Part shown: positions 25,658 through 49,029 of the stretch, piece after piece
Layout of the letters: each line of letters opens with the position of its first letter
How positions within the stretch are numbered: position 1 is the stretch's first letter
Notes under the pieces: model-generated
The model's database searches: none
What the model saw: only the letters and a program-made list of their open reading frames with translations
What the model was told of the DNA's origin: nothing
Position numbers and translations under genes: made by a program
NCBI GenBank assembly: GCA_041664925.1
Contig: JBAYJV010000001.1
Span: 125,845-189,844, forward strand
From: Minisyncoccota bacterium
GTDB taxonomy: Bacteria > Patescibacteriota > Minisyncoccia > JBAYJV01
Length of the DNA stretch: 64,000 nucleotides
Reading direction: 5' to 3'

Positions 25658-25793
25658 ATTTTGTTTTTAAATAGAAACTCAATATTTACTGCAGAATCAT
25701 TTTACCAAAAAAAATTCATCAAAACAATATGGTTCTTTAGAAAAAACTAGATCAAATATTGAATTTTTGGTAAAAATCGTTAGAATTAGAGCA

Positions 25794-27167
25794 ATGGCAA
25801 AATTAATTAAACAACATAGAACTTTGTTCTTGGTTATTGGAGATTTGGCAATGCTTTATTGCGCTTTATTTTTAACTCTTCTGGTTCGTGGACCTTCAGA
25901 TATCGGATCTATATTGCCAATTCATCTAAGATATTTTAGCATTATTTTTTTGCCTTGGCTTTTGGTTTTGTACATAACAGGACTTGATGATAAAAAATTA
26001 ATCAATAATAAATCTGTCTTTTTCAAAAAACTTGTTCAAGCTACTTTAATAAATGGCGCTATTGCAGTGGCATTTTTTTATCTTTTGCAATCACCCATCA
26101 GTCCGAAGCGAAATCTCTTTTTTGTAATGGTTTTCTTTTGGATACTTTTTTATTTATGGCGCCAGATTTTTTACCTAGCAATCAAGTCAAATTTCCTCAT
26201 GACCAAAGTTGCCTTTGTGGGAATAAATAAAGAAGTGCTTGAAATTATTGATCTTTTGGAAAAAAATCCTCAGTTCGGATATCGAATTGATTTTGTACTG
26301 ACTTCTAAAGAAAATCCGACTATTTCCCTTGTTCCAAAACACATAAATCTTCGCCAAGGACTCTCAAGTTTAAATAATTTACTTGAAACATCTTCTGTTA
26401 ACAAGATCATTGTCGCCATGAATCCTGAAACTAACCCAGTACTTGCAAAAGAACTTTATCATTCGTCCTCCAATATTGAATTCATTTATTTTCCTGATTT
26501 TTATGAACAGATTACTCAAAAAATTCCCATAGAGATGATTAATCGTTTTTGGCTCCAATCAAAAACTACAGAAAAAAGTTATGAATTCTTTAAGAGAATT
26601 TTTGATATAACATTGGCTGCACTTGGAGGTTTAATTTTGGCTGTTTTATTTCCTTTTATTTCTTTGGCTTATATTTTCTCAGATGGTTTTCCTATTACTT
26701 TTACTCAGTCAAGGGTTGGTAGGCACGGAAAAAAATTTAGAATTTATAAACTCAGGACAATGATTAAAGACGCAGAAAGAGAAAGACCTCTTTGGGCTGA
26801 AGAAAACGATGTGAGGGTCACTCGTCTGGGTAGATTTTTGAGAAAATATTATATAGATGAATTTCCTCAGTTTTTGAATATTCTTAAAGGAGAAATGTCT
26901 GTTGTCGGACCTAGGCCTGAACGACCAGAATTTGTTAAGACCCTGGAAAAAGAAATTACTTTTTATCCCCTGAGAAATATGGCCCGACCCGGAGTTACTG
27001 GCTGGGCTCAGGTTAATTCCTTTTACGCAAGATCGGTAGATGATAGCGTAGAAAAAACCCGATATGATCTTTATTATATAAAGAATCATTCTCTGATTTT
27101 TGATATTGAGATAATTTTGCGAACAGTAAAAATGATTTTTTCAAAAAGAGAAAAACAGAATTACTAA
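25794..27167 (+). CDS. undecaprenyl-phosphate sugar phosphotransferase (WbaP/bacterial sugar transferase family), initiating enzyme
   Basis: N-terminal TM segments. The C-terminal domain carries KRIFDI, FRIYKLRTM and VGPRPE motifs. The start was set to the first ATG. Confidence 0.8.
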   Translation: MAKLIKQHRTLFLVIGDLAMLYCALFLTLLVRGPSDIGSILPIHLRYFSIIFLPWLLVLYITGLDDKKLINNKSVFFKKLVQATLINGAIAVAFFYLLQSPISPKRNLFFVMVFFWILFYLWRQIFYLAIKSNFLMTKVAFVGINKEVLEIIDLLEKNPQFGYRIDFVLTSKENPTISLVPKHINLRQGLSSLNNLLETSSVNKIIVAMNPETNPVLAKELYHSSSNIEFIYFPDFYEQITQKIPIEMINRFWLQSKTTEKSYEFFKRIFDITLAALGGLILAVLFPFISLAYIFSDGFPITFTQSRVGRHGKKFRIYKLRTMIKDAERERPLWAEENDVRVTRLGRFLRKYYIDEFPQFLNILKGEMSVVGPRPERPEFVKTLEKEITFYPLRNMARPGVTGWAQVNSFYARSVDDSVEKTRYDLYYIKNHSLIFDIEIILRTVKMIFSKREKQNY

Positions 27168-27330
27168 ATAATCCACAGTTCCAAATGTGGATAAGCTCAC
27201 GTTTCTGGTAGTAAAATTAATCCATAAGTATTCACTAGCTAAGCCTTTAAGAGGTGTTTGTTTGTAAAATTTTATATAATTTGTTAACCGCGTTAAAATT
27301 ACTTTAGATGACAATGCGTTTTTTATTAAT

Positions 27331-28017
27331 ATGAAGGTCATTATTCTAGCAGGAGGAAAAGGTACTCGCCTTCCCTTGTCTGCCAAGAACATTCCAAAGC
27401 CATTGGTAACCGTTCACGAAAAAACGATTTTAGATTATCATATTGATATTCTTAAGGGTTTCGGATTTTCGGACATACGGCTCAGTCTTGGTCATATGGC
27501 TGATAAAATCATAGATCATGTAAAAAAGCGTTATGGTAATTTTTGCGAATGGATTGTTGAGCCTGAAAAACTTGGAACGGGAGGAGCATTAAAATACGCT
27601 TCATCTGACTTAAAAAAAGATTTTTTGGCTTTTAATGTTGATGATTTTCCAGAAATGGATATGCTTGACTTTGTCGAAAGCCATATTAACCGCAACATTG
27701 AAAATACGATTGCCATTTATAAAGTTGAAAATGCACAGGATTTCGGACTGATCAAACATAGCTGTGGTTATATTGAAGAATTCTCGGAAAAACCAGAAAC
27801 TCCTGTGTCTGGGTATATTAATACTGGTTTTTACATTTTGAATCCATCAATTTTTAAAGAAATCAGCGAGTCCTCTTTCTCTATAGAAAAAGATGTTTTT
27901 CCTGTCTTAGCAAAGACCCGACGCCTCGCCTGCTACTCCAATGTTCATCACTGGTTTACCACTGGCACAGAAGAACGTCTCCTTGAAGCTCATGAATATT
28001 TAAAAAAATATTTATAA
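27331..28017 (+). CDS. sugar-phosphate nucleotidyltransferase
   Basis: MKVIILAGGKGTRL signature, 228 aa. Confidence 0.7.
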   Translation: MKVIILAGGKGTRLPLSAKNIPKPLVTVHEKTILDYHIDILKGFGFSDIRLSLGHMADKIIDHVKKRYGNFCEWIVEPEKLGTGGALKYASSDLKKDFLAFNVDDFPEMDMLDFVESHINRNIENTIAIYKVENAQDFGLIKHSCGYIEEFSEKPETPVSGYINTGFYILNPSIFKEISESSFSIEKDVFPVLAKTRRLACYSNVHHWFTTGTEERLLEAHEYLKKYL

Positions 28018-28814: not shown

Positions 28815-28821
28815 AAAATTA
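28793..28821 (+). repeat. 29-nt direct repeat, copy A (AAAAATTAAAAGTGAAAAGTGAAAAATTA), overlapping the nadE stop
   Basis: 27 of 29 nt are identical to 63969..63997. The two copies bracket about 35 kb. Confidence 0.6.
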
Positions 28822-28945
28822 CAATGCAAAATTAAAAATTTTAGATTTTAGACTGTAGTTTTGTGTTTTTCATTTCTAGTTTTTCATTCGCCGCTAAATA
28901 GGATCATTAAGTAAACATATTCTTTTTTTAGTTAAAATAATTTTC

Positions 28946-30283
28946 ATGTCAAAACAAATTTGTCTGTCTGTTATTGGATTAGGAAAGTTAGGAATTTGTG
29001 CCGCTGTCTGCCCTGCCTACAAAGGATATAAAGTTCTCGGTCTTGATATAAATAAAAGAACCGTAGATTTAGTCAATAAAGGAAAGGCTCCTGTAATCGA
29101 ACCACAGCTTCAGACGTTAATAGATAAATCTAGAAATAATTTACGCGCTACTCAAGATTTTGAAAAAATTATTAAAGAGTCTGATGTTACTTTCTTAATT
29201 GTTCCGACTCCATCAAAACCAGATGGACATTTTTCTGACAAATTTCTCAAAGATGCTTTTGTGCCTCTTGCTAAACATCTCAAAGACAAAAAAAATTATC
29301 ATCTTTTCGTAATCACATCTACCGTTTCTCCAGGCACAACCGAATCAAATCTTATCCCTTTAATAGAAAAGTATTCAGGTAAAAAACTTAATAAAGATTT
29401 TGGCATTTGCTACAACCCTGAATTTATTGCTTTGGGAAGTATAATAAAAAATAGCCTTAATCCTGATATGGTTTTGATTGGAGAATCAGATAAAAAAGCT
29501 GGAAACATTTTAGAAAAAATATATAAGACTGTTTGCGATAACAATCCATACATCGCCAGAATGTCTATTGTCTCTGCCGAAATAACAAAGATTAGTTTAA
29601 ATGCTTATGTCACAATGAAAATTAGTTTTGCCAATACGCTTGGCAATCTTTGCGACAGAATTCCCGGATCAGAAGTAGATAAAATCAGCCGAGCCCTGGG
29701 AGCCGACAAAAGAGTTTCGCCCTATTATTTAAAAGCTGGTCTTGCTTTTGGCGGACCATGTTTTCCTCGTGACGGCCGAGCTTTTGTGGCTTTTGCAAAA
29801 AAATATGCTTACGATGCAAAATTAGTTAAGGCGACTGACGCAGTCAATCGCCTTCAGATAGAATTAACTATTAAGAAAATTCAAGAAGTTTTTAAAAATT
29901 CTAAAAATAATACTGTTTCGATTTTGGGGCTTGCTTATAAGACAGATACTCCTGTTATAGAAGAATCTGCCGCAATATTTCTTATAAAAGAATTACTTAA
30001 AAAGAAGGCGAAAATTTCCGTTTACGATCCTTTGGCCATAGAAAGTACAAGAAAGGTTTTTGGAAAAAAGATTGATTACGCAAAATCAGTAAAAAGTTGT
30101 ATAAATTCTTCCTCGGTCATAATCATAACTACCCCAGAAAAAGAATTTCTTAAAATAAATAAAAATTACTTTACGAAATTAACTACTGTCATTGATTGTT
30201 GGAGAATTTTACAATATAAGCCACTCGGAAAAAATGTGATTTATGATGCCTTGGGAAAATATGAAAAAAATAGAAGAAGTTAA
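28946..30283 (+). CDS. nucleotide-sugar dehydrogenase (UDP-glucose/GDP-mannose dehydrogenase family)
   Basis: N-terminal GLGKLG Rossmann motif and catalytic GGPCFPRD motif. Confidence 0.75.
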   Translation: MSKQICLSVIGLGKLGICAAVCPAYKGYKVLGLDINKRTVDLVNKGKAPVIEPQLQTLIDKSRNNLRATQDFEKIIKESDVTFLIVPTPSKPDGHFSDKFLKDAFVPLAKHLKDKKNYHLFVITSTVSPGTTESNLIPLIEKYSGKKLNKDFGICYNPEFIALGSIIKNSLNPDMVLIGESDKKAGNILEKIYKTVCDNNPYIARMSIVSAEITKISLNAYVTMKISFANTLGNLCDRIPGSEVDKISRALGADKRVSPYYLKAGLAFGGPCFPRDGRAFVAFAKKYAYDAKLVKATDAVNRLQIELTIKKIQEVFKNSKNNTVSILGLAYKTDTPVIEESAAIFLIKELLKKKAKISVYDPLAIESTRKVFGKKIDYAKSVKSCINSSSVIIITTPEKEFLKINKNYFTKLTTVIDCWRILQYKPLGKNVIYDALGKYEKNRRS

Positions 30284-31070
30284 AAATTATTGGGATGCCA
30301 GGCCTTGCAACATTCGTCATTCTCAAAAATCAATTGGGTCAAGAGAATATTTCGATGAAGTTGAAAAAAGGAAATATTTTGTTGAACCGCACATTCCCAA
30401 ATTCGCCCAATTCAATAAATGGAAAGATAAAGAAGTGCTCGAGCTGGGTTGTGGCATTGGCACCGACTCAATTAATTTTGCTAGGTTAGGGGCCAGACTG
30501 ACTGTTGTTGAATTATCAAAAGAAAGTCTTGATCTCGCCAAGAAAAGATTCAAAGTTTTTGGCCTTGAAGTTAAATTTTACGAAGGAAATATTGAAAACT
30601 TGAGCAGTTTTTTGCCTCAAAAAAAATACGATCTAATTTATTCTTTTGGTGTCATCCACCACACGCCAAGTCCCGAGAAAGTTTTTAAAGAAATTAAAAA
30701 ATACTGCAAACCCGAAACTGAAATTAAAATCATGCTTTATTCGAAATGGTGTTGGAAGGTTTTTTGGATTATCATGGGTTATGGCAAAGGGCAATTTTGG
30801 AAAACAAAAACTTTGGTTCCCAAATATTCAGAAGCTCAGACAGGTTCGCCCGTAACTTATATTTACTCTTTTAATGAAATCCGCCACTTAATGAAAGATT
30901 TTAAAGTCGTTAAAATATCGAAAGACCACATTTTCCCATACATAATTAAAAATTATAAAAAATACCAATACAAAAAAGTTTGGTATTTTCGTTATCTCCC
31001 GCATTCTATTTTTCACTGGCTTGAAAAAAGATTAGGCTGGCACACACTGATTATCGCAAAATTAAAATGA
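30261..31070 (+). CDS. class I SAM-dependent methyltransferase
   Basis: VLELGCGIGTDS motif I. The start could also be the upstream ATG at 30243. Confidence 0.65.
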   Translation: MKKIEEVKNYWDARPCNIRHSQKSIGSREYFDEVEKRKYFVEPHIPKFAQFNKWKDKEVLELGCGIGTDSINFARLGARLTVVELSKESLDLAKKRFKVFGLEVKFYEGNIENLSSFLPQKKYDLIYSFGVIHHTPSPEKVFKEIKKYCKPETEIKIMLYSKWCWKVFWIIMGYGKGQFWKTKTLVPKYSEAQTGSPVTYIYSFNEIRHLMKDFKVVKISKDHIFPYIIKNYKKYQYKKVWYFRYLPHSIFHWLEKRLGWHTLIIAKLK

Positions 31071-33728: not shown

Positions 33729-34638
33729 AAAAGTATTGGTTACTGGCGGGGCTGGTTTTATTGGCAGCCATACTGTTGACGCACTCATAAAAGAAGGAGC
33801 GAAAGTTATGGTGGTTGACAATCTCTCTACGGGACGAAAAGAAAATTTAAACCCCAAGGCGAAGTTCTATAAACTTAATATAAAAAGTCCTAAGATAGAA
33901 GAAATCATAAAAAAAGAAAAACCAGAAATCGTTTATCACTTTGCACATTTCGTATTGGTGCCAAAATCAGTTAAAAACCCGCTTCTTGATATGGATTGTT
34001 TAATCGGCACAATTAGAATTTTAAAATCACTAACAGAGATCAAGAACTTTAAAAAATTTGTTATGGCTTCTTCTGGTTTTTTATACGGCAACACAAAACA
34101 TCGCCCAACGAAAGAAACAGAACCAATTAGCCCAATTTCTCCATATGTGGTTACCAAAAAAGCGATTGAAAATTATTTAGAATTTTATAAACAAACCTAT
34201 GGCATCCCTCGTGTAATTTTGCGTTACCCAGGTGTTTATGGACCAAGGCAAATAACTGGAGCGATGGCCGATTATATTAGAAAACTCTCAACCAATAAAC
34301 AAGCAGAAATTTGGGGAGATGGTAAAAAAACTAGAGATTATATTTTTATTGAAGATGTGGTTAGGGCAAACATTGTGGCACTTGATTTAAAAGATAATTA
34401 TTCGAACCCAGTTTTTAATGTAGGTACCGGGATAGAAACAACGCTAAACGAATTATATTTTAAGATAGCAAAAAAATTAAACAAGAAAGCCAGTCCAATT
34501 TATTATCCTGATAGAAAAGGCGAACAAGTTAGGTATAGCCTAGATGCATCAAAAATAAAGAAAGAGCTTGGTTGGAGTTATAAAATATCTCTCGAAGAAG
34601 GTCTCGAAAAAACACTAAAATATTGGAAATTAATATGA
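33712..34638 (+). CDS. NAD-dependent epimerase/dehydratase (extended SDR)
   Basis: VLVTGGAGFIGSH motif and a YxxxK-type extended SDR. Confidence 0.7.
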   Translation: MQLKGKKVLVTGGAGFIGSHTVDALIKEGAKVMVVDNLSTGRKENLNPKAKFYKLNIKSPKIEEIIKKEKPEIVYHFAHFVLVPKSVKNPLLDMDCLIGTIRILKSLTEIKNFKKFVMASSGFLYGNTKHRPTKETEPISPISPYVVTKKAIENYLEFYKQTYGIPRVILRYPGVYGPRQITGAMADYIRKLSTNKQAEIWGDGKKTRDYIFIEDVVRANIVALDLKDNYSNPVFNVGTGIETTLNELYFKIAKKLNKKASPIYYPDRKGEQVRYSLDASKIKKELGWSYKISLEEGLEKTLKYWKLI

Positions 34639-35528
34639 AAAACTCAAAGAACATCAACGAGAAAGAATGTTTTGTGTGTAGCTCTTCCAGTATTCCAAAA
34701 ATAATCGGGCAGTACAAACATTGGAAATTATATGAATGCCCCAACTGTTTTTTTCAATATTGGTGGCCCATCGAACAAGCTCTCGACCAATATTTTGAAG
34801 AAAAATACAAATCATTCGCAGATACAAAAACTAAGCCCGATTTTGGAATGAATCAAAAATTGGCTTTAAAATTTGTAAAATCAGAAGTAAAAAAACAAAT
34901 TAATCTTAATAACTTATTGGATGTTGGCTGTGGAGAAGGAGCGTTTCTCAATGGAATACGCGACTCAGGAATTTCTTCTTGGGGAGTTGACTTTAATAGT
35001 AGAGCAATTAAAAAAGCTAAAAAAATATTTGGTCTAAAAAATTTATATCCTCTTTCAATATATGATTTTGCCAAAACATCAAAGTTGCCGAAATTCGACA
35101 TTATCACTTTTTTTGAAGTACTTGAGCATATAGGAGATCCATTAAAATTTATTCGAACGATTAAAAAACTTTTAATAAATAGTGGAATAATAATTTTTAG
35201 TGTTCCAGATGCAAAAACCTACGGCTATTGGGAGAAAATAATTAATGTCCCCCCTCACCATCTTACGAGATGGACAAAAGATATTATTAGGCAGCTTCTA
35301 AATCAATATGGATTTGAGGTATTAAAGATTAAAAGCATTAACAGACCCGATTCAGAATGTTCATTTATGAATCTTTCTTTGAAAATGGGTGCAAAAAAAA
35401 ATCATTACGCATCGTTTTCTACAAAAACAAAAATGATTTGGAAATACCTTTCTTTGCCATATCGTCAAATTATTTATTTATTGAAATTAAAAAGACCGAC
35501 AATATTCGTAATCGCTCAACTAAAATAA
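34635..35528 (+). CDS. class I SAM-dependent methyltransferase with N-terminal Cys4 zinc ribbon
   Basis: CFVCSSS...CPNCFF, then LLDVGCGEGAF motif I. The ATGA overlap with the upstream gene fixes the start at 34635. Confidence 0.65.
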   Translation: MKNSKNINEKECFVCSSSSIPKIIGQYKHWKLYECPNCFFQYWWPIEQALDQYFEEKYKSFADTKTKPDFGMNQKLALKFVKSEVKKQINLNNLLDVGCGEGAFLNGIRDSGISSWGVDFNSRAIKKAKKIFGLKNLYPLSIYDFAKTSKLPKFDIITFFEVLEHIGDPLKFIRTIKKLLINSGIIIFSVPDAKTYGYWEKIINVPPHHLTRWTKDIIRQLLNQYGFEVLKIKSINRPDSECSFMNLSLKMGAKKNHYASFSTKTKMIWKYLSLPYRQIIYLLKLKRPTIFVIAQLK

Positions 35529-35530
35529 GT

Positions 35531-36439: not shown

Positions 36440-36456
36440 TATTATTTAGATTAAAT

Positions 36457-38335: not shown

Positions 38336-38351
38336 ACATAGACTAATTATC

Positions 38352-40347: not shown

Positions 40348-40348
40348 T

Positions 40349-41281
40349 ATGAAAATATTAATTACCGGCGTTGCTGGATTTATTGGCAGCAATCTCAGCA
40401 GTCGCTTAATTAAAGAGAATTTTCAAGTTGTTGGCATTGATAATTTAAGTTATGGCGTTAAGGAACAAATTCCCAAGGGCGTTGATTTTTATAAATTAGA
40501 TATCCGATCAAAAAAAATCTATCCCCTATTTAAAAATGTTGATTTTGTTTTTCACTTAGCGGCAAAAAATTGCATTGCAGATTGCCAAAACGACCCCGTT
40601 GAAACTTCAGATATTAACGTTGCAGGAACTGTTAATGTTTTTGAAGCAGCAAAGAAAGCAAAAGTAAAAAAAGTTATTTATGCTGAATCTTCTGCAATTT
40701 ATGAAGGGAGCAGAATTTATCCCACCCCAGAAACAGAAGAAAAACCAGAAAGTTTTTATGCTATTAGCAAGCTATCGTCAATGCTCTTCGCTAAAGCCTA
40801 TCAAAGATATTTTGGTCTTTCTTCAACCGCTTTGCGCTATTTCTGTGTCTATGGCCCAAGACAGGATTATCGCAGAACCATTCCTCCTATAATGAGTGCC
40901 TTTATCATCAGATTATTAAAAGGGAAAGCACCAGTCATTTATGGCGATGGTACAAAAAAAAGAGATTTTGTTTATGTTGATGATGTGAACGATTTTCATC
41001 TTTTATGCCTTAAGGATAAGCGAACCGATAATAAGGTTTTTAATATAGGCAGTGGAGAAAATTATTCAGTTTTAGAAATTTATCACCTGATTAGTAAGCT
41101 TTTAGATATTAAGATAAAACCGAATTTCAAACCGAACCTTCCCGGTGAGGCCCAAAAAACATTAGCAGACATCTCGTTGGCAGAAAAAATTGGTTGGAAA
41201 CCAAAAACCAGTATCGAAACAGGTCTTTGGGAGATGATTAAATATATTAAAGAAGAAATTAAGAATGGTAATATTAAATAA
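40349..41281 (+). CDS. NAD-dependent epimerase/dehydratase (GalE-like)
   Basis: MKILITGVAGFIGSNL with YAISK as the catalytic YxxxK. Confidence 0.7.
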   Translation: MKILITGVAGFIGSNLSSRLIKENFQVVGIDNLSYGVKEQIPKGVDFYKLDIRSKKIYPLFKNVDFVFHLAAKNCIADCQNDPVETSDINVAGTVNVFEAAKKAKVKKVIYAESSAIYEGSRIYPTPETEEKPESFYAISKLSSMLFAKAYQRYFGLSSTALRYFCVYGPRQDYRRTIPPIMSAFIIRLLKGKAPVIYGDGTKKRDFVYVDDVNDFHLLCLKDKRTDNKVFNIGSGENYSVLEIYHLISKLLDIKIKPNFKPNLPGEAQKTLADISLAEKIGWKPKTSIETGLWEMIKYIKEEIKNGNIK

Positions 41282-41995
41282 ATGAAAGTAATTCTCCTTG
41301 CTGCCGGTAAAAGCACTAGATTAAAAAAAATTACCGAAAATATTCCCAAGCCAATGTTAAGGGTTGGAAATGAAATTGTTCTTGAACATAATATTTTCTG
41401 GCTTAAAAAATACGGCATTTACGATATTTATATTAACCTTCATTATCTTCCCAAAGTTATTAAAGACTACTTCGGCAATGGTAAGAAATTGGGTATTAAA
41501 ATAAAGTATTCATACGAGAAAGAAATTTTAGGAACCGCCGGAGGAATAAAAAAAATAATTGATAGATATAAAAAAGATAATTGGAAAAGTGATTTCTTGG
41601 TAGTCTACGGTGATAGTTTCTATCCCATTGATTATGATTTAAAAAAAATCATTGCCTTTCATAAAAAGAAAAAGGGTATTGCCACAATTGGTTTTTATCA
41701 CAAAAAAAGTGAAATTTGGAAAAGTGGTATTGCGGTTTTGGATGAGAATAAGCGCATTAATAATTTTATTGAAAAACCAAATCCAAAAGAAATAAAAAGC
41801 GATTTAGTCAACACAGGAATTTATATATTTAGTTCAGGAATCATAAATTATTTACCTAAGAGTTTTTCTGATTTTGGGAAAGATATTTTTCCAACGCTGC
41901 TCAAAAAAAATATCCCCATTTATGGATATGTTTTTAGGCAAGATTTAATACCTATTGATACGCCTGAACTTTACCTTAGAGCACAAAAACTATGA
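41282..41995 (+). CDS. hddC: sugar-1-phosphate nucleotidyltransferase, probable D-glycero-alpha-D-manno-heptose 1-phosphate guanylyltransferase
   Basis: MKVILLAAGKSTRL. It lies immediately upstream of and overlaps the heptose 7-phosphate kinase gene. Confidence 0.55.
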   Translation: MKVILLAAGKSTRLKKITENIPKPMLRVGNEIVLEHNIFWLKKYGIYDIYINLHYLPKVIKDYFGNGKKLGIKIKYSYEKEILGTAGGIKKIIDRYKKDNWKSDFLVVYGDSFYPIDYDLKKIIAFHKKKKGIATIGFYHKKSEIWKSGIAVLDENKRINNFIEKPNPKEIKSDLVNTGIYIFSSGIINYLPKSFSDFGKDIFPTLLKKNIPIYGYVFRQDLIPIDTPELYLRAQKL

Positions 41996-42993
41996 TTATT
42001 ACTCGTACGCCATTTAGGTTTACATTAGGAGGAGGAGGCACTGATTTGCCAGCATATTATTCAAAGTATGGTGGTTTTATTTTTTCTGCTGGCATAAACA
42101 AGTATATGTTTATCAACATTAATCAGCCGGTAGCCGACGATCTAATTAGAATTAAATATGATGATTCAGAGACAGTCAAAAGCCTTGATTTGGTTAGGCA
42201 CGATATCGCTAGAGAGGCACTTCGCATGATGCATATCAAAAATAATATAGATATCGCTTCTATGGCTGATATTCCTGGAGGTACCGGACTAGGCTCTTCA
42301 AGTTGTTACGCTGTCGGATTATTAAATGGACTTCACGCCATAAAAAAACAAAAAATCTCGCGCAGACAATTAGCTGAAAAAGCCTGTAAGCTAGAAATCG
42401 ACATTCTTAAAAAACCCATTGGGAAACAAGATCAATATATAGCTACCTTTGGAGGATTGACCGTTTTAGACATTGATAAAAAGGGTAAGGTAAAAGTTAG
42501 GTCAGCAAAACTTTCTGATGAAACTATTGAAAATTTGAATCGCAATCTTTTAATGTTTTATACTAATACTTCAAGGGACGCTAATGTAATTCTTGCTGAA
42601 CAAAGCCATGGAGCTAAGCAAGAACAAAAAAATGTTATAGAAAGTATGCACTATATAAAAGAAATCGGTTATAAGATCCTTAAAGCGGCTGAAAGTGGTA
42701 ATATCACTGACATCGGTGTTTTATTTGATAAGCACTGGCAGCACAAAAAGAAAATATCTTCAAAAATGTCTAATCCTAGATTTGATAAGATATATAATAT
42801 TGCTAAAGAAAACGGTGCGCTGGGTGGAAAAATTTTGGGAGCTGGGGGTGGTGGATTTTTTATCTTTTATATCGAAAAGAAACAATCAGAATTCCGTAAA
42901 GTTATAAAAGAATTGGGACTTCGGGAAATGGAATATGCTTTTGATTTTGAGGGCACAAAAGTATTGGCAAATTTTGAGAATATTAAAAAGTAG
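41992..42993 (+). CDS. hddA: GHMP kinase, probable D-glycero-alpha-D-manno-heptose 7-phosphate kinase
   Basis: IITRTPFRFTLGGGGTDLP and PGGTGLGSSS GHMP motifs. Size and N-terminus match HddA. Confidence 0.6.
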   Translation: MIITRTPFRFTLGGGGTDLPAYYSKYGGFIFSAGINKYMFININQPVADDLIRIKYDDSETVKSLDLVRHDIAREALRMMHIKNNIDIASMADIPGGTGLGSSSCYAVGLLNGLHAIKKQKISRRQLAEKACKLEIDILKKPIGKQDQYIATFGGLTVLDIDKKGKVKVRSAKLSDETIENLNRNLLMFYTNTSRDANVILAEQSHGAKQEQKNVIESMHYIKEIGYKILKAAESGNITDIGVLFDKHWQHKKKISSKMSNPRFDKIYNIAKENGALGGKILGAGGGGFFIFYIEKKQSEFRKVIKELGLREMEYAFDFEGTKVLANFENIKK

Positions 42994-42997
42994 ATAT

Positions 42998-44311
42998 ATG
43001 ACAATTCGAAAAAAGAAAATTGGAATAATTGGCCTTTGGCATCTCGGTTGCGTAGTTGCCTCTTCTCTTGCCGATGCCGAACACAACGTTATCGGCACTG
43101 ATTTTGATCAAAAAATATTAGAAGACTTAAAAAACAAAAAATCGCCAATTCAGGAACCTGGATTAGAAGAGTTACTTAATAAAAATATTAAAAAAGGCAC
43201 CCTTGTTTTAACAAATTCTTTTCAACAAGCAATAACTGATGTTGATTTTATATTAATAGCTTTTGATACTCCAGTAGACAGCAACGATAGACTGGATTTA
43301 TCGCCTATTTATAAAGCATGCAATTTGATTGCTAAATATGCTCCTAAAAAATTTACATTGGTGATTATGAGTCAAATACCAGTTGGCACTTCGAGAGAAC
43401 TTAAAAAAATAATTTTAAACAAAAACAAAAAGTTATCTTTCGATATCATTTATAGTCCTGAAAATCTTAGATTGGGCGAGGCACTAAAAGGGTTTGCTAA
43501 TCCAGAAAGAATTATTATCGGACTTGAGAAACACAGCATAAAGCAGAAAGCAGAAGAATTGTTTTCTTTTATAAAAGCGCCGAAAATTTATATGGACATA
43601 GAAAGCGCTGAAATGACAAAACATGCTATTAATACATATTTGGCAACTTCTATCAGCTTCATTAATGAATTAGCAAATTTGTCTGAGGTTCTGGGCGTTG
43701 ACATTAAAAAAGTAATAGAGGGAATGAAAAGCGATAGTCGGATCGGAAAACGTGCATTTTTGAATCCAGGATTAGGTTTTTCTGGAGGAACGCTCGGTCG
43801 AGATATTCAAGTCTTGAGAAATTTTGGGAAAAAACTTGAAATTAAGACCGGCCTTATGGATGCTGTGCTAAAAATTAATAAAAGTAGACAAGAAATGCTA
43901 TTTAAAAAAATTAATAACATTTTCTCTTCCCTTTCTGGGCTAAATATTGGATTACTTGGGCTCACTTATAAGGCGGGAACTAATACTTTGCGACGATCGG
44001 TCGCCATAGAAGTAGCTCGAAAATTAATCAGTAGAGGCGTCAATGTTAGCGCTTTTGATCCAATGATTAGTGAAAAAGTTAATACTATTAAAAAATTAAA
44101 AATTTCAAAAAGTCCATACGAAATTGCCAATGACGCAGATGCATTGATATTAATGACAGATTGGCCAGAATTTAGAAAACTAGATTTTGTTAAGATAAGA
44201 AAAATCATGAAAAAAGTAATTATTATCGATATGAAAAATTTTCTAGATACTGACATGCTTAAAAAATTATCTTTTGACTATTACGGTGTGGGCATAAAAA
44301 ACATTTCATAA
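42998..44311 (+). CDS. nucleotide-sugar dehydrogenase (UDP-glucose/GDP-mannose dehydrogenase family)
   Basis: IGIIGLWHLGCVVA Rossmann fold. The start was set at the internal ATG (MTIRKKKIGIIG). Confidence 0.7.
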   Translation: MTIRKKKIGIIGLWHLGCVVASSLADAEHNVIGTDFDQKILEDLKNKKSPIQEPGLEELLNKNIKKGTLVLTNSFQQAITDVDFILIAFDTPVDSNDRLDLSPIYKACNLIAKYAPKKFTLVIMSQIPVGTSRELKKIILNKNKKLSFDIIYSPENLRLGEALKGFANPERIIIGLEKHSIKQKAEELFSFIKAPKIYMDIESAEMTKHAINTYLATSISFINELANLSEVLGVDIKKVIEGMKSDSRIGKRAFLNPGLGFSGGTLGRDIQVLRNFGKKLEIKTGLMDAVLKINKSRQEMLFKKINNIFSSLSGLNIGLLGLTYKAGTNTLRRSVAIEVARKLISRGVNVSAFDPMISEKVNTIKKLKISKSPYEIANDADALILMTDWPEFRKLDFVKIRKIMKKVIIIDMKNFLDTDMLKKLSFDYYGVGIKNIS

Positions 44312-44321
44312 AAATAAACTC

Positions 44322-45191
44322 ATGATTTTACTTAAAAATAATTCTACGAATTTAAAGAATAAAGTAGCTGTGATTACGGGAGGCACAGGTGGCATAGGAA
44401 GTGTTATTGCATTACTCTTTGTCAAAGAAGGTGCAAAAGTAATTATTATTGATGTTGATAAAAAAAGAATTGATGCTTTAGTTAAAAAAATAGGAAACGA
44501 ATCTATCGGTATAAAAATAGATGTTCGTAATCCTTCCCAAATAAAAAAGGCTGTGAGCGAAATCGTAAGAAAGTTCAAAAAAATTGATATTCTGATAAAT
44601 GCCGCAGGAGTACAAGGACCAATCGGTCTTCTCGTTGATGCCGATTTAGATAATTGGACTAATAACATTAAAATTAATTTATTTGGAACTGTTAATTTTT
44701 GTAAAGCAGTCTTACCCTTGATGATAAAAAAGAAGGGCGGTAGGATTATTAATTTTTCAGGAGGCGGTGCAACATTTTCCAGGCCACATTTTTCTGCTTA
44801 TGCTGTTTCAAAAATTGCTGTAGTAAAATTTTCAGAAATTTTAGCTGATGAGGTAAAAAAGTATAATATCTATGTCAATGCTATTGCTCCAGGAGGAATA
44901 AATACAAATATGCTAAAAGAGGTTTTGCAGCAAAGAAAATCTGCAGGCGAAGAAGAATTTAAAAAAGCTCAAGAAAGAAAGAAAGATGGCGGTACTCCTC
45001 CGGAATTAGTTGCCGAATTGGTATTATTCTTGGCTTCTGAAAAATCACACAATCTTACAGGAAAACTCATAAGCGCCCCTTGGGATAATTGGAAAAAGTG
45101 GAGTAAAAATGATATAATCCAAATTAATAAAACTACAAAATACACTTTGAAAAGAATAGATAATAAAAATTTTAAAGAAATTAAAATATGA
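44322..45191 (+). CDS. SDR-family oxidoreductase
   Basis: VAVITGGTGGIGS and YAVSK catalytic motif. Confidence 0.7.
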   Translation: MILLKNNSTNLKNKVAVITGGTGGIGSVIALLFVKEGAKVIIIDVDKKRIDALVKKIGNESIGIKIDVRNPSQIKKAVSEIVRKFKKIDILINAAGVQGPIGLLVDADLDNWTNNIKINLFGTVNFCKAVLPLMIKKKGGRIINFSGGGATFSRPHFSAYAVSKIAVVKFSEILADEVKKYNIYVNAIAPGGINTNMLKEVLQQRKSAGEEEFKKAQERKKDGGTPPELVAELVLFLASEKSHNLTGKLISAPWDNWKKWSKNDIIQINKTTKYTLKRIDNKNFKEIKI

Positions 45192-46183
45192 ATATAGGAA
45201 TCATTGGCGCTGGACTCATTGGCAATAAACGCGCACAAACTATAGAAGAAATTGGAAAAGATGTGATCGTTGCCATTGCTGATATTGAAAAAAATAAAGC
45301 GATAGAATTTTCAAGAAAATACCAGTGTCGAGCGCTAGACAAATGGCAAAAAATGGTTAAGATGGACGGTATTGATGCTATTATTATTGCTGTTCCCAAT
45401 AAATGGGTTGCGCCAATAGCAATTGAAGCTTTAAAACAAAAAAAGCATATTCTCTGCGAAAAACCATTTGGAAGAAACGCCAGTGAGTCGAAGCAAATTT
45501 TAGAAACAGCTAAACGAAATAAATGTTTAGTTAAGGTTGGTTTTAATCATCGTTTCCATCCAGCAATTTGGAAAGCAAAAGAAATCATTAATAAAAATAA
45601 AATTGGAAAGGTAATTTTTATTAGAGCTCGTTATGGACATGGTGGAAGATTGGGAATGGAAAAAGAATGGAGAGCGAACAAAAATATTTCCGGTGGCGGA
45701 GAACTTTTAGATCAAGGCGTTCATTTAATTGATCTTGCAAGATGGTTTGCTGGAGAAATTAGAGAGGTTTTTGGTGTCGTAGAAACTAAATTCTGGGACA
45801 TGAAAGTTGAAGACAATGCCTTTGTGATTATGAAAAATGATGATGTAACTGTGGAGTTTCATGTTAGCTGGACTAATTGGAAAAATATTTTTTCTTTTGA
45901 AATTTTTGGAGAAAAAGGTTTTTTACAAATTGAAGGATTGGGTGGAAGTTATGGAAAAGAAAAACTAATCTTTGGGGAACGAAATCTAGGCTTTGGCATT
46001 CCAAAGATTCAAGAATTTGAATTTGAAAAAGACCTAAGCTGGCAAGAAGAATGGAAAAACTTTCGATCAGCGGTTTTAAAAAAAGAAAAAATGATTGGTG
46101 ATGGCAATGACGGACTCAAGGCAAATCAAATTGTTGAAGCAATTTATCAATCAAGTAAGATTAAAAAAATCGTCAGTCCATGA
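45188..46183 (+). CDS. Gfo/Idh/MocA-family oxidoreductase
   Basis: MNIGIIGAGLIGNKRA with an EKP motif. Confidence 0.7.
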   Translation: MNIGIIGAGLIGNKRAQTIEEIGKDVIVAIADIEKNKAIEFSRKYQCRALDKWQKMVKMDGIDAIIIAVPNKWVAPIAIEALKQKKHILCEKPFGRNASESKQILETAKRNKCLVKVGFNHRFHPAIWKAKEIINKNKIGKVIFIRARYGHGGRLGMEKEWRANKNISGGGELLDQGVHLIDLARWFAGEIREVFGVVETKFWDMKVEDNAFVIMKNDDVTVEFHVSWTNWKNIFSFEIFGEKGFLQIEGLGGSYGKEKLIFGERNLGFGIPKIQEFEFEKDLSWQEEWKNFRSAVLKKEKMIGDGNDGLKANQIVEAIYQSSKIKKIVSP

Positions 46184-46704
46184 AAAGCACCAGAGCAATT
46201 TTTTTAGACAGAGACGGGATCATTAATGATTTAGTTTTCAGGGATAACGGGTTTTTTTCTCCTAGAGTTTTCAGTGATTTTAAGCTTAAAAGAGGCATAA
46301 AAAAATTCTCACAAAAAACTAAGAGCCTTGGTTTTTTAACAATCGTTGTGACCAATCAACCGGACATAGAAAGAAAATTAATGAAAGTAAGTGAACTTGA
46401 AAAAATGCACAGTGTAATTATGGAAAATCTATCAGTTGACGAAATCGTGACTTGTCCGCATGATGATAAAAATAATTGTTTGTGCAGAAAACCAAAACCC
46501 GGAATGATAAAAGATATGTCAAAAAAATGGCATATAGATTTAAAAAAATCTTTTATCATCGGAGACAGCTGGAAAGATGTTGAAGCTGGTAAGCAGGCTG
46601 GTTGCAAAACTATTTTTTTGAAAACTGATTATAATAAAAAAGAAGAGATTTTCCCCGACTTTAAGGTCTCCTCTTTTAGAGAAATTATTGATATCATTAA
46701 ATAA
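46180..46704 (+). CDS. gmhB: D,D-heptose 1,7-bisphosphate phosphatase (HAD-IIIA)
   Basis: FLDRDGIIN motif I and a CPHDDKNNCLCRKPKPGM Zn-binding insertion typical of GmhB. Confidence 0.65.
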   Translation: MKSTRAIFLDRDGIINDLVFRDNGFFSPRVFSDFKLKRGIKKFSQKTKSLGFLTIVVTNQPDIERKLMKVSELEKMHSVIMENLSVDEIVTCPHDDKNNCLCRKPKPGMIKDMSKKWHIDLKKSFIIGDSWKDVEAGKQAGCKTIFLKTDYNKKEEIFPDFKVSSFREIIDIIK

Positions 46705-46727
46705 AGTTTTATTTATTTATAATTTAC

Positions 46728-47447
46728 ATGAAACAAAAGTTAAAACTTCCTAAAATTAAAATTTTTTCTGATGGTGCTTGTAGGGCAGACATTCTGAAAC
46801 AAGCAAAAATTCCTCTAGTAAAAGGGTTCACAACTAATCCGTCATTAATGAGAAAATCTGGTATTACAGATTATGAAAAATTCGCTAAAGACATTCTAAG
46901 GTTTGTTAAAACCAAGCCGATCTCCTTTGAGGTATTCTCTGATGACTTCAGCGAGATGGAACGACAAGCCAGAGAGATTGCTTCATGGGGAAAAAACGTT
47001 TATATAAAAATTCCAATAACCAACACTAAGGGAAAATCATCATTTAACCTAGTTAAAAAACTTTCTTACGACAATATTAAGATCAATGTAACCGCCGTAA
47101 TGACATTGGGACAAGTTAAAAATATTGTTAAGGCATTGAACCCCAAAACACCAAGCATTGTCTCGGTGTTTGCCGGCAGGATCGCTGATACTGGAGTAAA
47201 TCCAATTCCAACAATGAGAGCGGCTGCAAAGCTTCTATCAAAACTTCCCAAAGCCGAGCTTCTCTGGGCCAGCCCCAGACAACCACTTGATGTGTTTTTA
47301 GCAGCACAGGCTAAATGTGACATCATCACAGTTTTTCCAGAAATAATAGGAAGATTTGATAGAATTGGCAAAGACTTAAAGGAATATTCTCTTGAAACTG
47401 TTAAAATGTTTTATGAAGACGCAAGGACAGCCGGATACAAGTTGTGA
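46728..47447 (+). CDS. tal: transaldolase / fructose-6-phosphate aldolase family (short TalC/FSA type)
   Basis: IFSDGA...GFTTNPSLM matches the TAL/FSA signature (GVTTNPS). About 239 aa. Confidence 0.65.
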   Translation: MKQKLKLPKIKIFSDGACRADILKQAKIPLVKGFTTNPSLMRKSGITDYEKFAKDILRFVKTKPISFEVFSDDFSEMERQAREIASWGKNVYIKIPITNTKGKSSFNLVKKLSYDNIKINVTAVMTLGQVKNIVKALNPKTPSIVSVFAGRIADTGVNPIPTMRAAAKLLSKLPKAELLWASPRQPLDVFLAAQAKCDIITVFPEIIGRFDRIGKDLKEYSLETVKMFYEDARTAGYKL

Positions 47448-48031
47448 TACCAAAGTCTATGATAAGCAAACAAAAAAAATACATTGATAGATATCTAAAG
47501 GAGGTAAGGGTAATTATAGAACTTATTGATAGAGAAAAAATTATTGAGATAATTGATGTCTTGGAAAAAATCAGAGAAAAAAAAGGTAGAATTTTTGTTT
47601 TGGGAATTGGTGGTTCTTCAGCTAATGCTTCTCATGCCGTAAATGATTTCAGAAAGATTTGTGGTATCGAAAGTTACACTCCAACCGATAATGTTGCAGA
47701 ACTGACTGCTTGGACAAATGATAATGGTTTTGAATATATATTTATAAAATGGCTTCAGTGTTCTCATTTCAATAAAAATGATGCATTAGTTATTTTATCT
47801 GTCGGAGGTGGCAGTCAAACAACTTCTCAAAACTTAGTTTTGGCAATGCGTTATGCTAAAAAACTTGGAGCTAAAATTGTCGGCATAGTTAGTCGTGATG
47901 GTGGAGAGACAAGGAAACTTGCTGATGCCTGCGTTATCATTCCCCCACTTGTTCATGAGCGCATCACTCCCCACGCAGAAGAGTGGCAAGGTATAATTCT
48001 TCACTTAATCGCAAATGCACTTGTTTCTTAG
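47444..48031 (+). CDS. gmhA: SIS-domain sedoheptulose-7-phosphate isomerase
   Basis: IFVLGIGGSSANASHAVNDF and SVGGGS motifs. Confidence 0.65.
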   Translation: MIPKSMISKQKKYIDRYLKEVRVIIELIDREKIIEIIDVLEKIREKKGRIFVLGIGGSSANASHAVNDFRKICGIESYTPTDNVAELTAWTNDNGFEYIFIKWLQCSHFNKNDALVILSVGGGSQTTSQNLVLAMRYAKKLGAKIVGIVSRDGGETRKLADACVIIPPLVHERITPHAEEWQGIILHLIANALVS

Positions 48032-48057
48032 TTATATTATATTTGTGTTTTGATTTT

Positions 48058-49017
48058 ATGGCAACAAAGAAAAAAATCTTAGTAACAGGCGCTGGTGGTT
48101 TTATCGGCCATCACTTGGTCCGTTTTCTCAAGAAAAAAGGTTATTGGGTAAGAGGCGCTGATATAAAATACCCTGAATATTCTCCCAAAAATGAAGCGGA
48201 TGAATTTTTAAAAATTGACCTGCGAGATACCAAAAACTGTCTCAAGGCAACTCAAGGAATGGACGAAGTCTATAATTTAGCAGCCAATATGGGCGGCATT
48301 GGCTTTATTACTTTTCACACTTCTGATGTTTTATATGACAATGTGATGATTAACGCCAATATGGCGGAAGCTTGCAAGCAGAACAAAGTCAAAAGGATTT
48401 TCTATTCTTCCTCTGCTTGTGTTTATCCTATTGGGAAACAGAAGAATCCTAAAGTTATTGCTTTAAAAGAAAAAGATGCTTATCCGGGAGATCCTGACAA
48501 TGAATATGGCTGGGAAAAATTATTCTCCGAGCGCCTTTATGCTTCTTATAAAGAATTTTACAAAGTAAGAATTGCCAGATTTCACAATATTTTTGGCGAA
48601 GAAGGAACTTACGATGGCGGAAGAGAAAAGGCGCCGGCCGCTCTTTGTCGAAAAATTGCTTTGGCAAAAACCAAAGACACAATTGAGATTTGGGGAGATG
48701 GAAAACAGACAAGATCGTTTTGCTATATAAGCGATTGCGTTCAAGCTATATACGGTTTGATGAAATCTGATTTTGATCAGCCATTAAATATAGGGTCAAG
48801 CAGATTGGTGTCTATGGATGAACTTGCTGATATTATCGCCAAGATTGCCAAAAAAACAATCACTAAAAAACATCTTCTTAATAAACCGCAAGGCGTTAGA
48901 GGAAGAAATTCTGACAATACTCTTTTTAAAAAACTTTTTGGTTGGGCGCCACCAAAGATTAGTTTAGAAGAAGGGCTTAGAAGAAATTACGAATGGATTG
49001 AAAAACAAGTAAAATAA
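48058..49017 (+). CDS. NAD-dependent epimerase/dehydratase, nucleotide-sugar modifying
   Basis: ILVTGAGGFIGHHLV motif. The start was moved to the ATG after the gmhA stop. Confidence 0.7.
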   Translation: MATKKKILVTGAGGFIGHHLVRFLKKKGYWVRGADIKYPEYSPKNEADEFLKIDLRDTKNCLKATQGMDEVYNLAANMGGIGFITFHTSDVLYDNVMINANMAEACKQNKVKRIFYSSSACVYPIGKQKNPKVIALKEKDAYPGDPDNEYGWEKLFSERLYASYKEFYKVRIARFHNIFGEEGTYDGGREKAPAALCRKIALAKTKDTIEIWGDGKQTRSFCYISDCVQAIYGLMKSDFDQPLNIGSSRLVSMDELADIIAKIAKKTITKKHLLNKPQGVRGRNSDNTLFKKLFGWAPPKISLEEGLRRNYEWIEKQVK

Positions 49018-49029
49018 TAAATACACACA

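Follow-up and report, generated by a model that had tools for sequence, protein, structure and literature searches.

The 64,000-nucleotide stretch analysed here, called the window throughout, comes from a Minisyncoccota bacterium (assembly GCA_041664925.1, contig JBAYJV010000001.1). Our subject is a block of genes at positions 25794-49017 that has the appearance of a glycan assembly locus and, above all, a nine-gene cassette within it that is predicted to supply an activated sugar. The original prediction, made from the letters of the window, had described the block as an operon-like, single-strand run of about 23 kb that leads from a priming transferase to a flippase. Our gene calls and family assignments, which were based on a listing of the open reading frames (ORFs) of the window and on scans with Pfam and NCBIfam profile hidden Markov models (HMMs), confirmed that this run is real: 24 genes follow one another between 25794 and 49017, all on the plus strand, and each has a profile-HMM assignment above the curated Pfam threshold. 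Every family named in the prediction was recovered above its threshold, namely Bac_transf (the WbaP-like priming transferase), Polysacc_synt (Wzx), Glycos_transf_1 (the GT4 glycosyltransferase), three Glycos_transf_2 (GT2), Glyco_trans_1_2 (the CgeB-like glycosyltransferase), FkbM and two class I S-adenosylmethionine (SAM) methyltransferases (three methyltransferases, as had been stated), two NTP_transferase, two UDPG_MGDP_dh, adh_short and GFO_IDH_MocA. Pfam likewise agrees with the families given for a triad of genes at 42998..46183, that is, a nucleotide-sugar dehydrogenase, a short-chain dehydrogenase/reductase (SDR) and a Gfo/Idh/MocA oxidoreductase. Absent from the predicted list were NadE, the identity of the last gene as a GDP-mannose 3,5-epimerase (GME) homologue and, around the triad, a GHMP kinase, a HAD phosphatase, a transaldolase and an SIS isomerase. 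The members of the cassette, all on the plus strand, are as follows.

40349..41281, plus strand: cassette gene 1, GalE-like extended SDR epimerase (extended SDR 2); Epimerase 190 bits, PDB 4zrm 202 bits
41282..41995, plus strand: cassette gene 2, sugar-1-phosphate nucleotidyltransferase (HddC/ManC-like); NTP_transferase 123 bits, HddC model 92 bits (cut-off 300)
41992..42993, plus strand: cassette gene 3, GHMP anomeric sugar kinase (HddA-like, divergent); GHMP_kinases_N/C, HddA model 163 bits (cut-off 600)
42998..44311, plus strand: cassette gene 4 (optional), UDP-Glc/GDP-Man dehydrogenase paralogue lacking the catalytic Cys (dehydrogenase 2); three UDPG_MGDP_dh domains
44322..45191, plus strand: cassette gene 5, classical SDR (FabG/glucose-1-dehydrogenase-like), predicted ketoreductase; adh_short 185.6 bits
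45188..46183, plus strand: cassette gene 6, Gfo/Idh/MocA oxidoreductase; GFO_IDH_MocA and C-terminal domains
46180..46704, plus strand: cassette gene 7, HAD-IIIA phosphatase (GmhB-like); TIGR01656 125.7 bits, GmhB models 96-118 bits (cut-off 178)
46728..47447, plus strand: cassette gene 8, short-type transaldolase; TAL_FSA 134.7 bits, TIGR02134 303.7 bits (cut-off 282)
47444..48031, plus strand: cassette gene 9, SIS-domain ketose-phosphate isomerase, divergent GmhA-like; SIS_2 38.9 bits, gmhA model 54 bits (cut-off 209)

The pathway to GDP-D-glycero-alpha-D-manno-heptose, known from Aneurinibacillus, Campylobacter, Yersinia and Burkholderia, consists of GmhA, HddA, GmhB and HddC. Members of the same four families stand together in the cassette within 41282-48031, and the nearest solved structures are in keeping with this likeness: those closest to the kinase are heptose kinases (3k85, 4n3o and WcbL, about 130-137 bits), and the one closest to the SIS protein is GmhA (51 bits). 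The cassette differs from that pathway in that all four proteins score far below the equivalog cut-offs and in that it adds a transaldolase (or, in variants described below, a phosphofructokinase-like gene), an epimerase, an SDR, a Gfo/Idh/MocA enzyme and often the Cys-less dehydrogenase. To our knowledge, none of these added enzymes is part of a described heptose pathway.

We searched for the cassette with the GHMP kinase as the sole probe, taking one genome per species, and then mapped the window proteins onto the relative loci retrieved (given L-numbers here). The kinase led to 36 loci, most of which have the same neighbour genes. These loci span Planctomycetota, Desulfobacterota/Syntrophales, Aminicenantes, Acidobacteriota, Bacteroidota, Ignavibacteriales, Kryptoniota, Saccharibacteria, Omnitrophota and Clostridia, and the cassette is conserved across more than 10 phyla. 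Among the 20 loci with enough flanking DNA for co-occurrence to be counted, the classical SDR and the Gfo/Idh/MocA gene were each present in 19, the epimerase, the SIS isomerase and the transaldolase each in 18 and the nucleotidyltransferase in 17; the HAD phosphatase was present in 10 and dehydrogenase 2 in 7. The transaldolase slot is filled by two different TAL subfamilies (31-64% identity). The epimerase is the best-conserved cassette gene, with a median identity of 66% across phyla; it has more than 6,800 homologues, of which the top 120 are all at least 67% identical, and the search with it returned no informative protein name among the close relatives. Two cultured carriers were found: a plasmid of Lawsonia intracellularis, on which the set is annotated (SIS, HAD, transaldolase, nucleotide sugar dehydrogenase, SDR, Gfo/Idh/MocA, 'galactokinase' and nucleotidyltransferase), and a replicon of Rhizobium jaguaris. 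The order extended SDR, dehydrogenase 2, classical SDR, Gfo/Idh/MocA and GHMP kinase recurs in a high-GC metagenome-assembled genome (L044). Plasmid loci of the Rhizobium leguminosarum type that the kinase also matched lack the transaldolase and are arranged differently, and these were set aside. The literature that we searched holds no description of the nine-gene cassette, which is a widespread variant of the NDP-heptose pathways (NDP, nucleoside diphosphate) undescribed in that literature.

The gene directly upstream of the cassette in the window encodes a GT2 glycosyltransferase (GT2 c below), and it holds the same position in at least seven loci of several phyla (L002, L003, L016, L019, L035, L041 and L045). 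Because it adjoins the cassette in so many backgrounds, GT2 c is a candidate transferase for the cassette sugar, and judged from this gene order it is likely to be the enzyme that transfers it.

Several loci depart from the arrangement found in the window. In cassette variants that lack the HAD gene, a gene of the phosphofructokinase (PFK) family, encoding about 380-420 amino acids (aa), lies between the Gfo and SIS genes; its product carries the motifs GILTGGGDVPPLNAVI, IGGEDTLS and KTIDNDV. Such genes occur in L005 (14664-15857), L012 (12968-14173), L013 (12882-14084), L017 (14241-15503), L023 (15645-16808), L027 (18044-19216), L033 (16105-17277) and others. The HAD phosphatase and the PFK-like gene look mutually exclusive, the latter being present in about half of the cassette variants. 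Some loci carry, beside the cassette copies, a further pair of GHMP kinase and SIS genes, or else a near-canonical GmhA with a nucleotidyltransferase (L045 7349-8956; L019 2-1300). The second SIS protein scores 177 bits (L019) or 96 bits (L045) on the gmhA model, versus 54 bits for the SIS protein of the window, and the extra copies suggest two parallel higher-sugar pathways per locus. The cassette SIS gene of L045 is apparently split (131 + 63 aa). A protein annotated as 'lysylphosphatidylglycerol synthase transmembrane domain' is encoded beside the kinase/SIS genes on the Lawsonia plasmid (L038 4302-5285) and on a plasmid of Rhizobium sp. C104 (L040 5132-6091); it does not occur in the window, and its presence hints that related sugars may be attached to lipids in the Lawsonia and Rhizobium plasmid carriers.

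The optional dehydrogenase of the cassette bears directly on the chemistry. Canonical UDP-Glc, GDP-Man and UDP-GlcNAc 6-dehydrogenases use a Cys nucleophile, and the thiohemiacetal and thioester formed on it are needed for the second oxidation, to the acid. Dehydrogenase 2 carries the motif GGTLGRD, with Thr where the family has the catalytic Cys, and keeps the Lys/Asn motif. The same replacement was found in all 11 of the 11 cassette-linked orthologues, which come from the Candidate Phyla Radiation (CPR), Planctomycetota, Desulfobacterota, Acidobacteriota, Ignavibacteriales, Lawsonia and Rhizobium, whereas canonical dehydrogenase paralogues in the same loci retain the Cys. When 1.84 billion cluster representatives (50% clusters) were searched exhaustively with HMMER, 27,823 members of the dehydrogenase family were found; in the best 150 of these (P0241-P0390), the position is of the GGTL(A/G)RD type in 115, Cys in 32, His in 3 and Asn in 1. 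A further Cys-less member of the same subfamily is encoded in L044 (3150-4433). Where a Cys-less member that was checked bears a name, this is 'UDP-glucose 6-dehydrogenase' or 'nucleotide sugar dehydrogenase', and the Cys-less subfamily, as far as its motifs tell, is large, diverse and mis-annotated under the names of uronic-acid-forming enzymes. Because it lacks the Cys, dehydrogenase 2 cannot yield a uronic acid by the known mechanism; we predict from its sequence that it is a two-electron NDP-sugar dehydrogenase and does not form a uronic acid. A two-electron oxidation would fit a secondary alcohol, for example at C6 of a heptose or octose, and the triad as a whole would be the tailoring part of a cassette for a higher sugar.

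The genes outside the cassette fall into two groups. Those concerned with the assembly of a glycan, together with a membrane protein gene that diverges from the block, are the following.

23444..25657, minus strand: Wzy_C-domain membrane protein, 737 aa, divergent from the block; Pfam Wzy_C 73.6 bits
25794..27167, plus strand: WbaP-type polyprenyl-phosphate sugar-1-phosphate (priming) transferase; Bac_transf 209.7 bits, TIGR03025 341.9 bits (cut-off 295.6)
30243..31070, plus strand: class I SAM methyltransferase; Methyltransf_31/25/11, 65-70 bits
31067..32293, plus strand: GT4 glycosyltransferase; Glycos_transf_1 105 bits, Glyco_transf_4 36 bits
32280..33728, plus strand: Wzx (MOP-family) flippase; Polysacc_synt 101.7 bits, 12 transmembrane (TM) helices, as expected
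34635..35528, plus strand: class I SAM methyltransferase (Methyltransf_23); 82 bits
35531..36439, plus strand: GT2 glycosyltransferase a; Glycos_transf_2 124.8 bits
36457..37473, plus strand: Glyco_trans_1_2 (CgeB-like) glycosyltransferase; PF13524 88.5 bits
37460..38335, plus strand: FkbM-family methyltransferase; Methyltransf_21 90 bits, TIGR01444 103.6 bits
38352..39317, plus strand: GT2 glycosyltransferase b; Glycos_transf_2 137 bits, 91% aa identity in the closest relative, L041
39307..40347, plus strand: GT2 glycosyltransferase c, membrane-anchored by C-terminal TM helices (Pfam; TM count)

The remaining genes encode other sugar-nucleotide enzymes and NadE.

27331..28017, plus strand: sugar-1-phosphate nucleotidyltransferase 1; NTP_transferase 111 bits
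28017..28814, plus strand: NadE, NH3-dependent NAD+ synthase; NAD_synthase 211.8 bits, TIGR00552 214 bits (cut-off 63.7)
28946..30283, plus strand: nucleotide-sugar 6-dehydrogenase 1 (UGDH-like), canonical; three UDPG_MGDP_dh domains, TIGR03026 349.6 bits
33712..34638, plus strand: extended SDR 1, NDP-hexose or hexuronate 4-epimerase-like; Epimerase 179.8 bits, PDB 4zrm 249 bits
48058..49017, plus strand: GME homologue (extended SDR 3); PDB 2c59 333 bits, E 2.5e-98

The priming transferase (457 aa) has an ATG start that agrees with the public gene call, and a count of its TM helices gave 4+1, as expected for a phosphoglycosyltransferase (PGT). By a hydropathy count the divergent Wzy_C protein has about 11 TM helices; its C-terminus, about 270 aa long, is soluble and weakly TPR-like: TPR_8 (20 bits, cut-off 25.7) and TPR_17 are both below threshold, and PrsT-TPR gave 26 bits. 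It had been described as a ligase-like partner with TPR repeats. The divergent Wzy_C gene is there; the repeats are matched at sub-threshold level, and the role of ligase does not follow, given that the Wzy_C domain is common to polymerases, ligases and O-oligosaccharyltransferases (O-OTases) and does not tell them apart. The protein is a candidate for any of the three by its domain, and polymerase or O-OTase is more likely than ligase because the host, a CPR bacterium (Candidatus Paceibacterota), is expected to be without lipopolysaccharide (LPS). The host was placed by way of SecA, encoded at 10876-13647, which is 100% identical to a protein of a Candidatus Paceibacterota metagenome-assembled genome (433-kb contig) and whose next relatives belong to Parcubacteria/Patescibacteria.

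Dehydrogenase 1, the second member of its family in the block, keeps the catalytic Cys in the motif GGPCFPRD, which fits the family motif GGxCxx(K/R)D. The best NCBIfam matches of nucleotidyltransferase 1, below their cut-offs, are the N-domain of archaeal GlmU and Man-1-P guanylyltransferase, and the best solved match of extended SDR 1, PDB 4zrm, is a UDP-hexose 4-epimerase of T. maritima. By their family assignments, these three enzymes make it plausible that a uronic acid enters the glycan. The expectation that the glycan would contain heptose and uronic acid thus stands with regard to heptose-type genes, and a uronic acid would come by way of dehydrogenase 1 and not by way of the triad. 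An alignment of the GME homologue with the plant enzyme matches its motifs SSACVYP, YGWEK and GGREKAPAA and shows that the catalytic Cys, the Tyr-x-x-x-Lys and the Lys are kept; the start of the homologue at 48058 agrees with a 319-aa gene call in relatives. This similarity predicts a GDP-sugar of L-galacto or L-gulo configuration, made from GDP-mannose. Only in CPR relatives (L035, L041 and L045) does the GME gene accompany the cassette, and one might speculate that its substrate is the cassette product instead of GDP-mannose.

NadE overlaps nucleotidyltransferase 1 by 1 nt. It was seen beside glycan genes in none of the retrieved relative loci, and we therefore treat it as probably a housekeeping enzyme. 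The idea that it amidates a uronic acid found no supporting synteny and was rejected as pure speculation.

The junctions between genes are tight. The frequent 4-nt ATGA overlaps that had been noted were found at 31067, 34635, 41992, 45188 and 46180, and a GTGA overlap at 47444 brings the number of junctions of this kind to six; with the 1-nt overlap at 28017 and other short spacings, 21 of the 23 junctions overlap or are separated by no more than 26 nt. The two larger gaps, of 163 nt (27168-27330) and 131 nt (28815-28945), bracket the pair formed by nucleotidyltransferase 1 and NadE. Three starts were revised, to 42998 for dehydrogenase 2, 35531 for GT2 a (the likely start, 2 nt past the preceding stop) and 48058 for the last gene, and the ATGA overlap at 34635 sets the start of the Methyltransf_23 gene there. 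The only minus-strand ORFs of at least 100 aa inside the block (26709-27089, 41083-41418, 44306-44668 and 47066-47371) are all nested in plus-strand genes with strong family matches. No convincing plus-strand terminator was found within 25794-49017, in agreement with the original prediction that strong internal terminators are absent. The block is closed, 10 nt past the last stop codon, by one further feature.

49027-49059, both strands: intrinsic-terminator-like hairpin, bidirectional and GC-rich; stem of 12-15 bp with 7 GC pairs, T-runs on both strands

Promoter-like matches are not enriched (71, versus 79.6 expected in shuffled sequence); weak ones are present in the 163- and 131-nt gaps. 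Transcription of the block probably starts in the divergent promoter region at 25658-25793 and yields a single long unit or a few of them. A Shine-Dalgarno motif is recognisable in almost none of the 24 genes, whose leaders are A/T-rich, and no Rfam family (riboswitches included) or tRNA gene was found in the 64-kb window.

We consider it likely that the block is a Wzx/Wzy-type lipid-carrier heteroglycan locus of a CPR bacterium, equipped with three sugar modules, and that the cassette leads to a modified NDP-heptose. By family assignment, assembly begins with the WbaP-type transferase, which starts a repeat unit on polyprenyl phosphate; the five glycosyltransferases (GT4, three GT2 and the CgeB-like enzyme) elongate it and the three methyltransferases decorate it; Wzx flips it over the membrane, and the divergent Wzy_C protein would polymerise it or pass it to an acceptor. 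The first sugar module, made up of nucleotidyltransferase 1, the Cys-bearing 6-dehydrogenase and the 4-epimerase-like SDR, may give a hexuronic acid, and the second, GME, the L-galacto or L-gulo GDP-sugar. The third would be the self-contained, horizontally mobile cassette at 40349-48031. In it, the transaldolase would make a higher ketose phosphate, most simply sedoheptulose-7-phosphate, which the SIS isomerase would turn into the aldose phosphate; the GHMP kinase would phosphorylate C1, the HAD phosphatase take off the distal phosphate and the nucleotidyltransferase form the NDP-sugar. Tailoring would fall to the GalE-like epimerase, the Cys-less dehydrogenase, the Gfo/Idh/MocA enzyme and the classical SDR, and it likely involves the oxidation of a secondary alcohol followed by a stereo-inverting or deoxygenating reduction. 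A redox-tailored NDP-heptose is, in our view, the most likely cassette product, and we rank it above the octose discussed below.

As a whole, the locus resembles Wzx/Wzy-dependent loci that start with WbaP or WcaJ: a 4+1 TM PGT, a MOP flippase, a Wzy_C protein, GT2 and GT4 enzymes, sugar-nucleotide genes and methyltransferases are co-directional, the GC content lies below that of the flanks (31-34% in the block versus 39-46% downstream) and the gene content differs between close relatives. It departs from such loci in that the CPR host is expected to lack LPS, in that the Wzy_C protein has its long, weakly TPR-like tail and in that a NadE gene is embedded. The locus is thus of an ordinary kind, a lipid-carrier glycan assembly cluster, although about 23 kb is sizeable for a CPR bacterium.

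The comparison with relatives shows how the gene content varies. Between the window and L041/L042, the nearest relative among the loci found, collinearity runs from 38357 to past 51192, with a nucleotide identity of 86-88%. On the upstream side of about 38340, L041 has either different genes or genes whose proteins share only about 41-47% identity, and there is almost no nucleotide match; the sharp breakpoint falls between the genes at 37460-38335 and 38352-39317. Synteny thus holds for the 3′ block, from GT2 b through GME, and not for the 5′ part, which has been exchanged. Surface-glycan loci typically show this pattern, here a hypervariable 5′ part (25794-38335) next to a 3′ block that is conserved (38352-49017), and the breakpoint looks like a serotype-style exchange of cassettes within the lineage. 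Such variation between close relatives would fit selection on a surface structure of a bacterium that lives as an episymbiont.

Several observations weigh against the reading of the block as a single heteroglycan locus with a heptose cassette. All four activation enzymes fall well below their equivalog cut-offs, which means that the substrate need not be sedoheptulose-7-phosphate. Dehydrogenase 2 and the HAD phosphatase are often missing from the cassette elsewhere, so the tailoring proposed for the window cannot be universal cassette chemistry. A chain-length regulator (Wzz/PCP) had no match in the block or in the scanned flanking ORFs, and no export component such as Wza was found within the window. 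NadE has no obvious role in glycan synthesis, and the only large gaps of the block lie on either side of it and nucleotidyltransferase 1. Finally, the replacement of the 5′ half in the closest relative makes the 23 kb an evolutionary mosaic.

The alternative that survives best concerns the cassette product. The lincosamide route is the only sugar-nucleotide route with a transaldolase known to us, and one could envision the cassette as its counterpart in primary metabolism, leading to an NDP-8-deoxy-octose for a surface glycan; we regard this as possible but doubtful. In such a scheme, an LmbR-like transaldolase would join a C3 unit to ribose-5-phosphate to give octulose-8-phosphate; the SIS isomerase (as LmbN), GHMP kinase (LmbP), HAD phosphatase (LmbK) and nucleotidyltransferase (LmbO) would convert this to an NDP-octose; the epimerase (LmbM), the Cys-less dehydrogenase (LmbL) and the Gfo enzyme (LmbZ/CcbZ) would carry out epimerisation and 6,8-dehydration; and the classical SDR would reduce the 6-keto group where lincosamide producers transaminate it. 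In those producers, LmbR, LmbN, LmbP, LmbK and LmbO build GDP-octose, from which LmbM, LmbL, LmbZ/CcbZ and LmbS form GDP-lincosamide (PMC4351081; PMC12945683). The Lmb/Ccb proteins comprise a transaldolase of 222 aa, an SIS protein of 202, a GHMP kinase of 323, a HAD phosphatase of 185, a guanylyltransferase of 232, a member of the UDP-Glc-4-epimerase family of 325, one of the nucleotide-sugar-dehydrogenase family of 436 and an oxidoreductase of about 332, plus an aminotransferase (PMC4351081). The window cassette has eight of its nine families in common with this set, the unusual transaldolase included, and their lengths are similar (239, 195, 333, 174, 237, 310, 437 and 331 aa, in the same order); this likeness is one of protein family and length only. 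The closest BLAST matches outside lincosamide clusters were found in Acidobacteria for CcbK, CcbO and CcbZ and in Sorangium for CcbN and CcbP (PMC4351081), and Acidobacteria is a phylum that carries the cassette.

Further evidence can be read in favour of an octose. A dedicated transaldolase is kept in 18 of the 20 cassettes despite the two TAL subfamilies in that slot; the SIS protein and the kinase lie far under the GmhA and HddA cut-offs, while some loci hold a second SIS protein that is more GmhA-like than the first; and the loss of Cys from the dehydrogenase suits an oxidation of the secondary alcohol at C6. The transaldolase, or the PFK-like gene of the variants, could, however, just as well be there to make the cassette self-sufficient in sedoheptulose-7-phosphate for a heptose, and most cassettes lack the LmbL-like gene. 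No LmbS-type C6 aminotransferase was found in the cassette, in which a classical SDR stands where LmbS would be, and the setting is a glycan locus instead of an antibiotic cluster; the transaldolase, SIS isomerase, kinase, phosphatase and nucleotidyltransferase occur together and are co-conserved. PDB searches with the cassette proteins returned no octose-pathway enzyme, LmbL is not among the names of the high-GC Cys-less dehydrogenases (Acidobacteriia and Myxococcales are), and the literature that we searched links neither an aldo-octose nor a transaldolase to polysaccharide clusters. One Streptomyces plasmid match of the transaldolase was examined and proved to be an unrelated catabolic gene.

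A broader form of the octose proposal, that the cassette makes a nucleotide-activated aldo-octose such as an 8-deoxy-octose by lincomycin logic, with an LmbL-like C6 dehydrogenase, in all the phyla that carry it, seems to us by analogy a shade more doubtful still. If it were true, the lincosamide sugar pathway would have been recruited from the cassette, as a widespread source in primary metabolism, and eight-carbon aldoses would be common and overlooked in the envelopes of bacteria, CPR bacteria, Lawsonia intracellularis and some rhizobia among them. What the cassette suggests is a nucleotide-sugar pathway, as yet uncharacterised, that leads to a modified heptose or octose, and the link that it offers to the origin of the lincosamide sugar is concrete and testable.

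A second alternative concerns the fate of the glycan. The product might be protein-linked, with the Wzy_C protein acting as a PglL-type O-OTase that decorates the large surface proteins encoded nearby, which we think unlikely. The breadth of the Wzy_C family, the expected lack of LPS in the CPR host and the failure to find Wzz in the window would all be compatible with it, as would the giant secreted or Ig-like proteins of the flanks (1898 aa with Big_5, 447 aa, 1083 aa and a PKD/lamin-tail-domain protein). Against it, in a relative locus (L045) a Wzz-like gene lies directly 3′ of the GME gene, which suggests polymerisation.

It is more improbable again that the block is not one functional unit, that is, that a glycan locus and housekeeping genes merely run in the same direction, with separate promoters in the 163- and 131-nt gaps and with NadE, and the transaldolase as the pentose-phosphate enzyme of the cell, as the housekeeping part. 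The passing scores of NadE on the NAD synthase model and of the transaldolase on the equivalog model TIGR02134 speak for this, as do the position of the two gaps around nucleotidyltransferase 1 and NadE, the weak promoter-like matches within them and the swapped 5′ half in the nearest relative. On the other hand, promoter-like matches are no commoner than in shuffled sequence and nearly all junctions overlap or are short. Phyla that carry the cassette are expected to have pentose-phosphate enzymes of their own, and the transaldolase accompanies the cassette in these phyla and on plasmids.

The last alternative is that of the original prediction, which saw in the triad the first steps of the WbpA/WbpB route to a UDP-2,3-diamino- or diacetamido-uronic acid, or to some variant thereof. 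The families of the three proteins are as they were named, a UDP-sugar 6-dehydrogenase family member stands near a Gfo/Idh/MocA enzyme as in the WbpA/WbpB/WbpE/WbpD (WlbA-D) set, and the Gfo protein reaches 140 bits on a model for archaeal UDP-GlcNAc 3-dehydrogenase, which is below its cut-off of 450. The best solved relatives of that protein are, however, generic sugar or inositol dehydrogenases (91 bits); PDB 3q2k, labelled only 'oxidoreductase' there and which we take to be WlbA, the WbpB orthologue, reached 48 bits. An aminotransferase (WbpE) and an N-acetyltransferase (WbpD), which the prediction itself had not seen, were found by the Pfam and NCBIfam scans in none of the 24 genes. With Thr in place of the catalytic Cys in dehydrogenase 2 and all its orthologues, a Gfo protein that is not specifically WbpB-like, no aminotransferase or acetyltransferase in the block and the three genes embedded in, and co-inherited with, a kinase/isomerase/phosphatase/transaldolase set that belongs to a different pathway, the WbpA/WbpB logic fails, and we give this explanation almost no credence.

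The block is flanked at 19842-23083 and at 49077-62507, both on the minus strand, by genes for large, mostly unannotatable and presumably surface-exposed proteins. Those upstream include a protein with ComEA-HhH, PKD and lamin-tail domains and a 584-aa protein without a match; those downstream, where the GC content is 0.42-0.46, include proteins of 447 aa (CHB_HEX_C/Fn3-associated), 1898 aa (Big_5), 407 aa (FG-GAP repeat) and 1083 aa (without a match). About 7 kb downstream of the block there is a gene for an NAD-dependent epimerase/dehydratase (56483-57433, minus strand), and a similar minus-strand epimerase gene follows the cluster in L045 (18228-19181).

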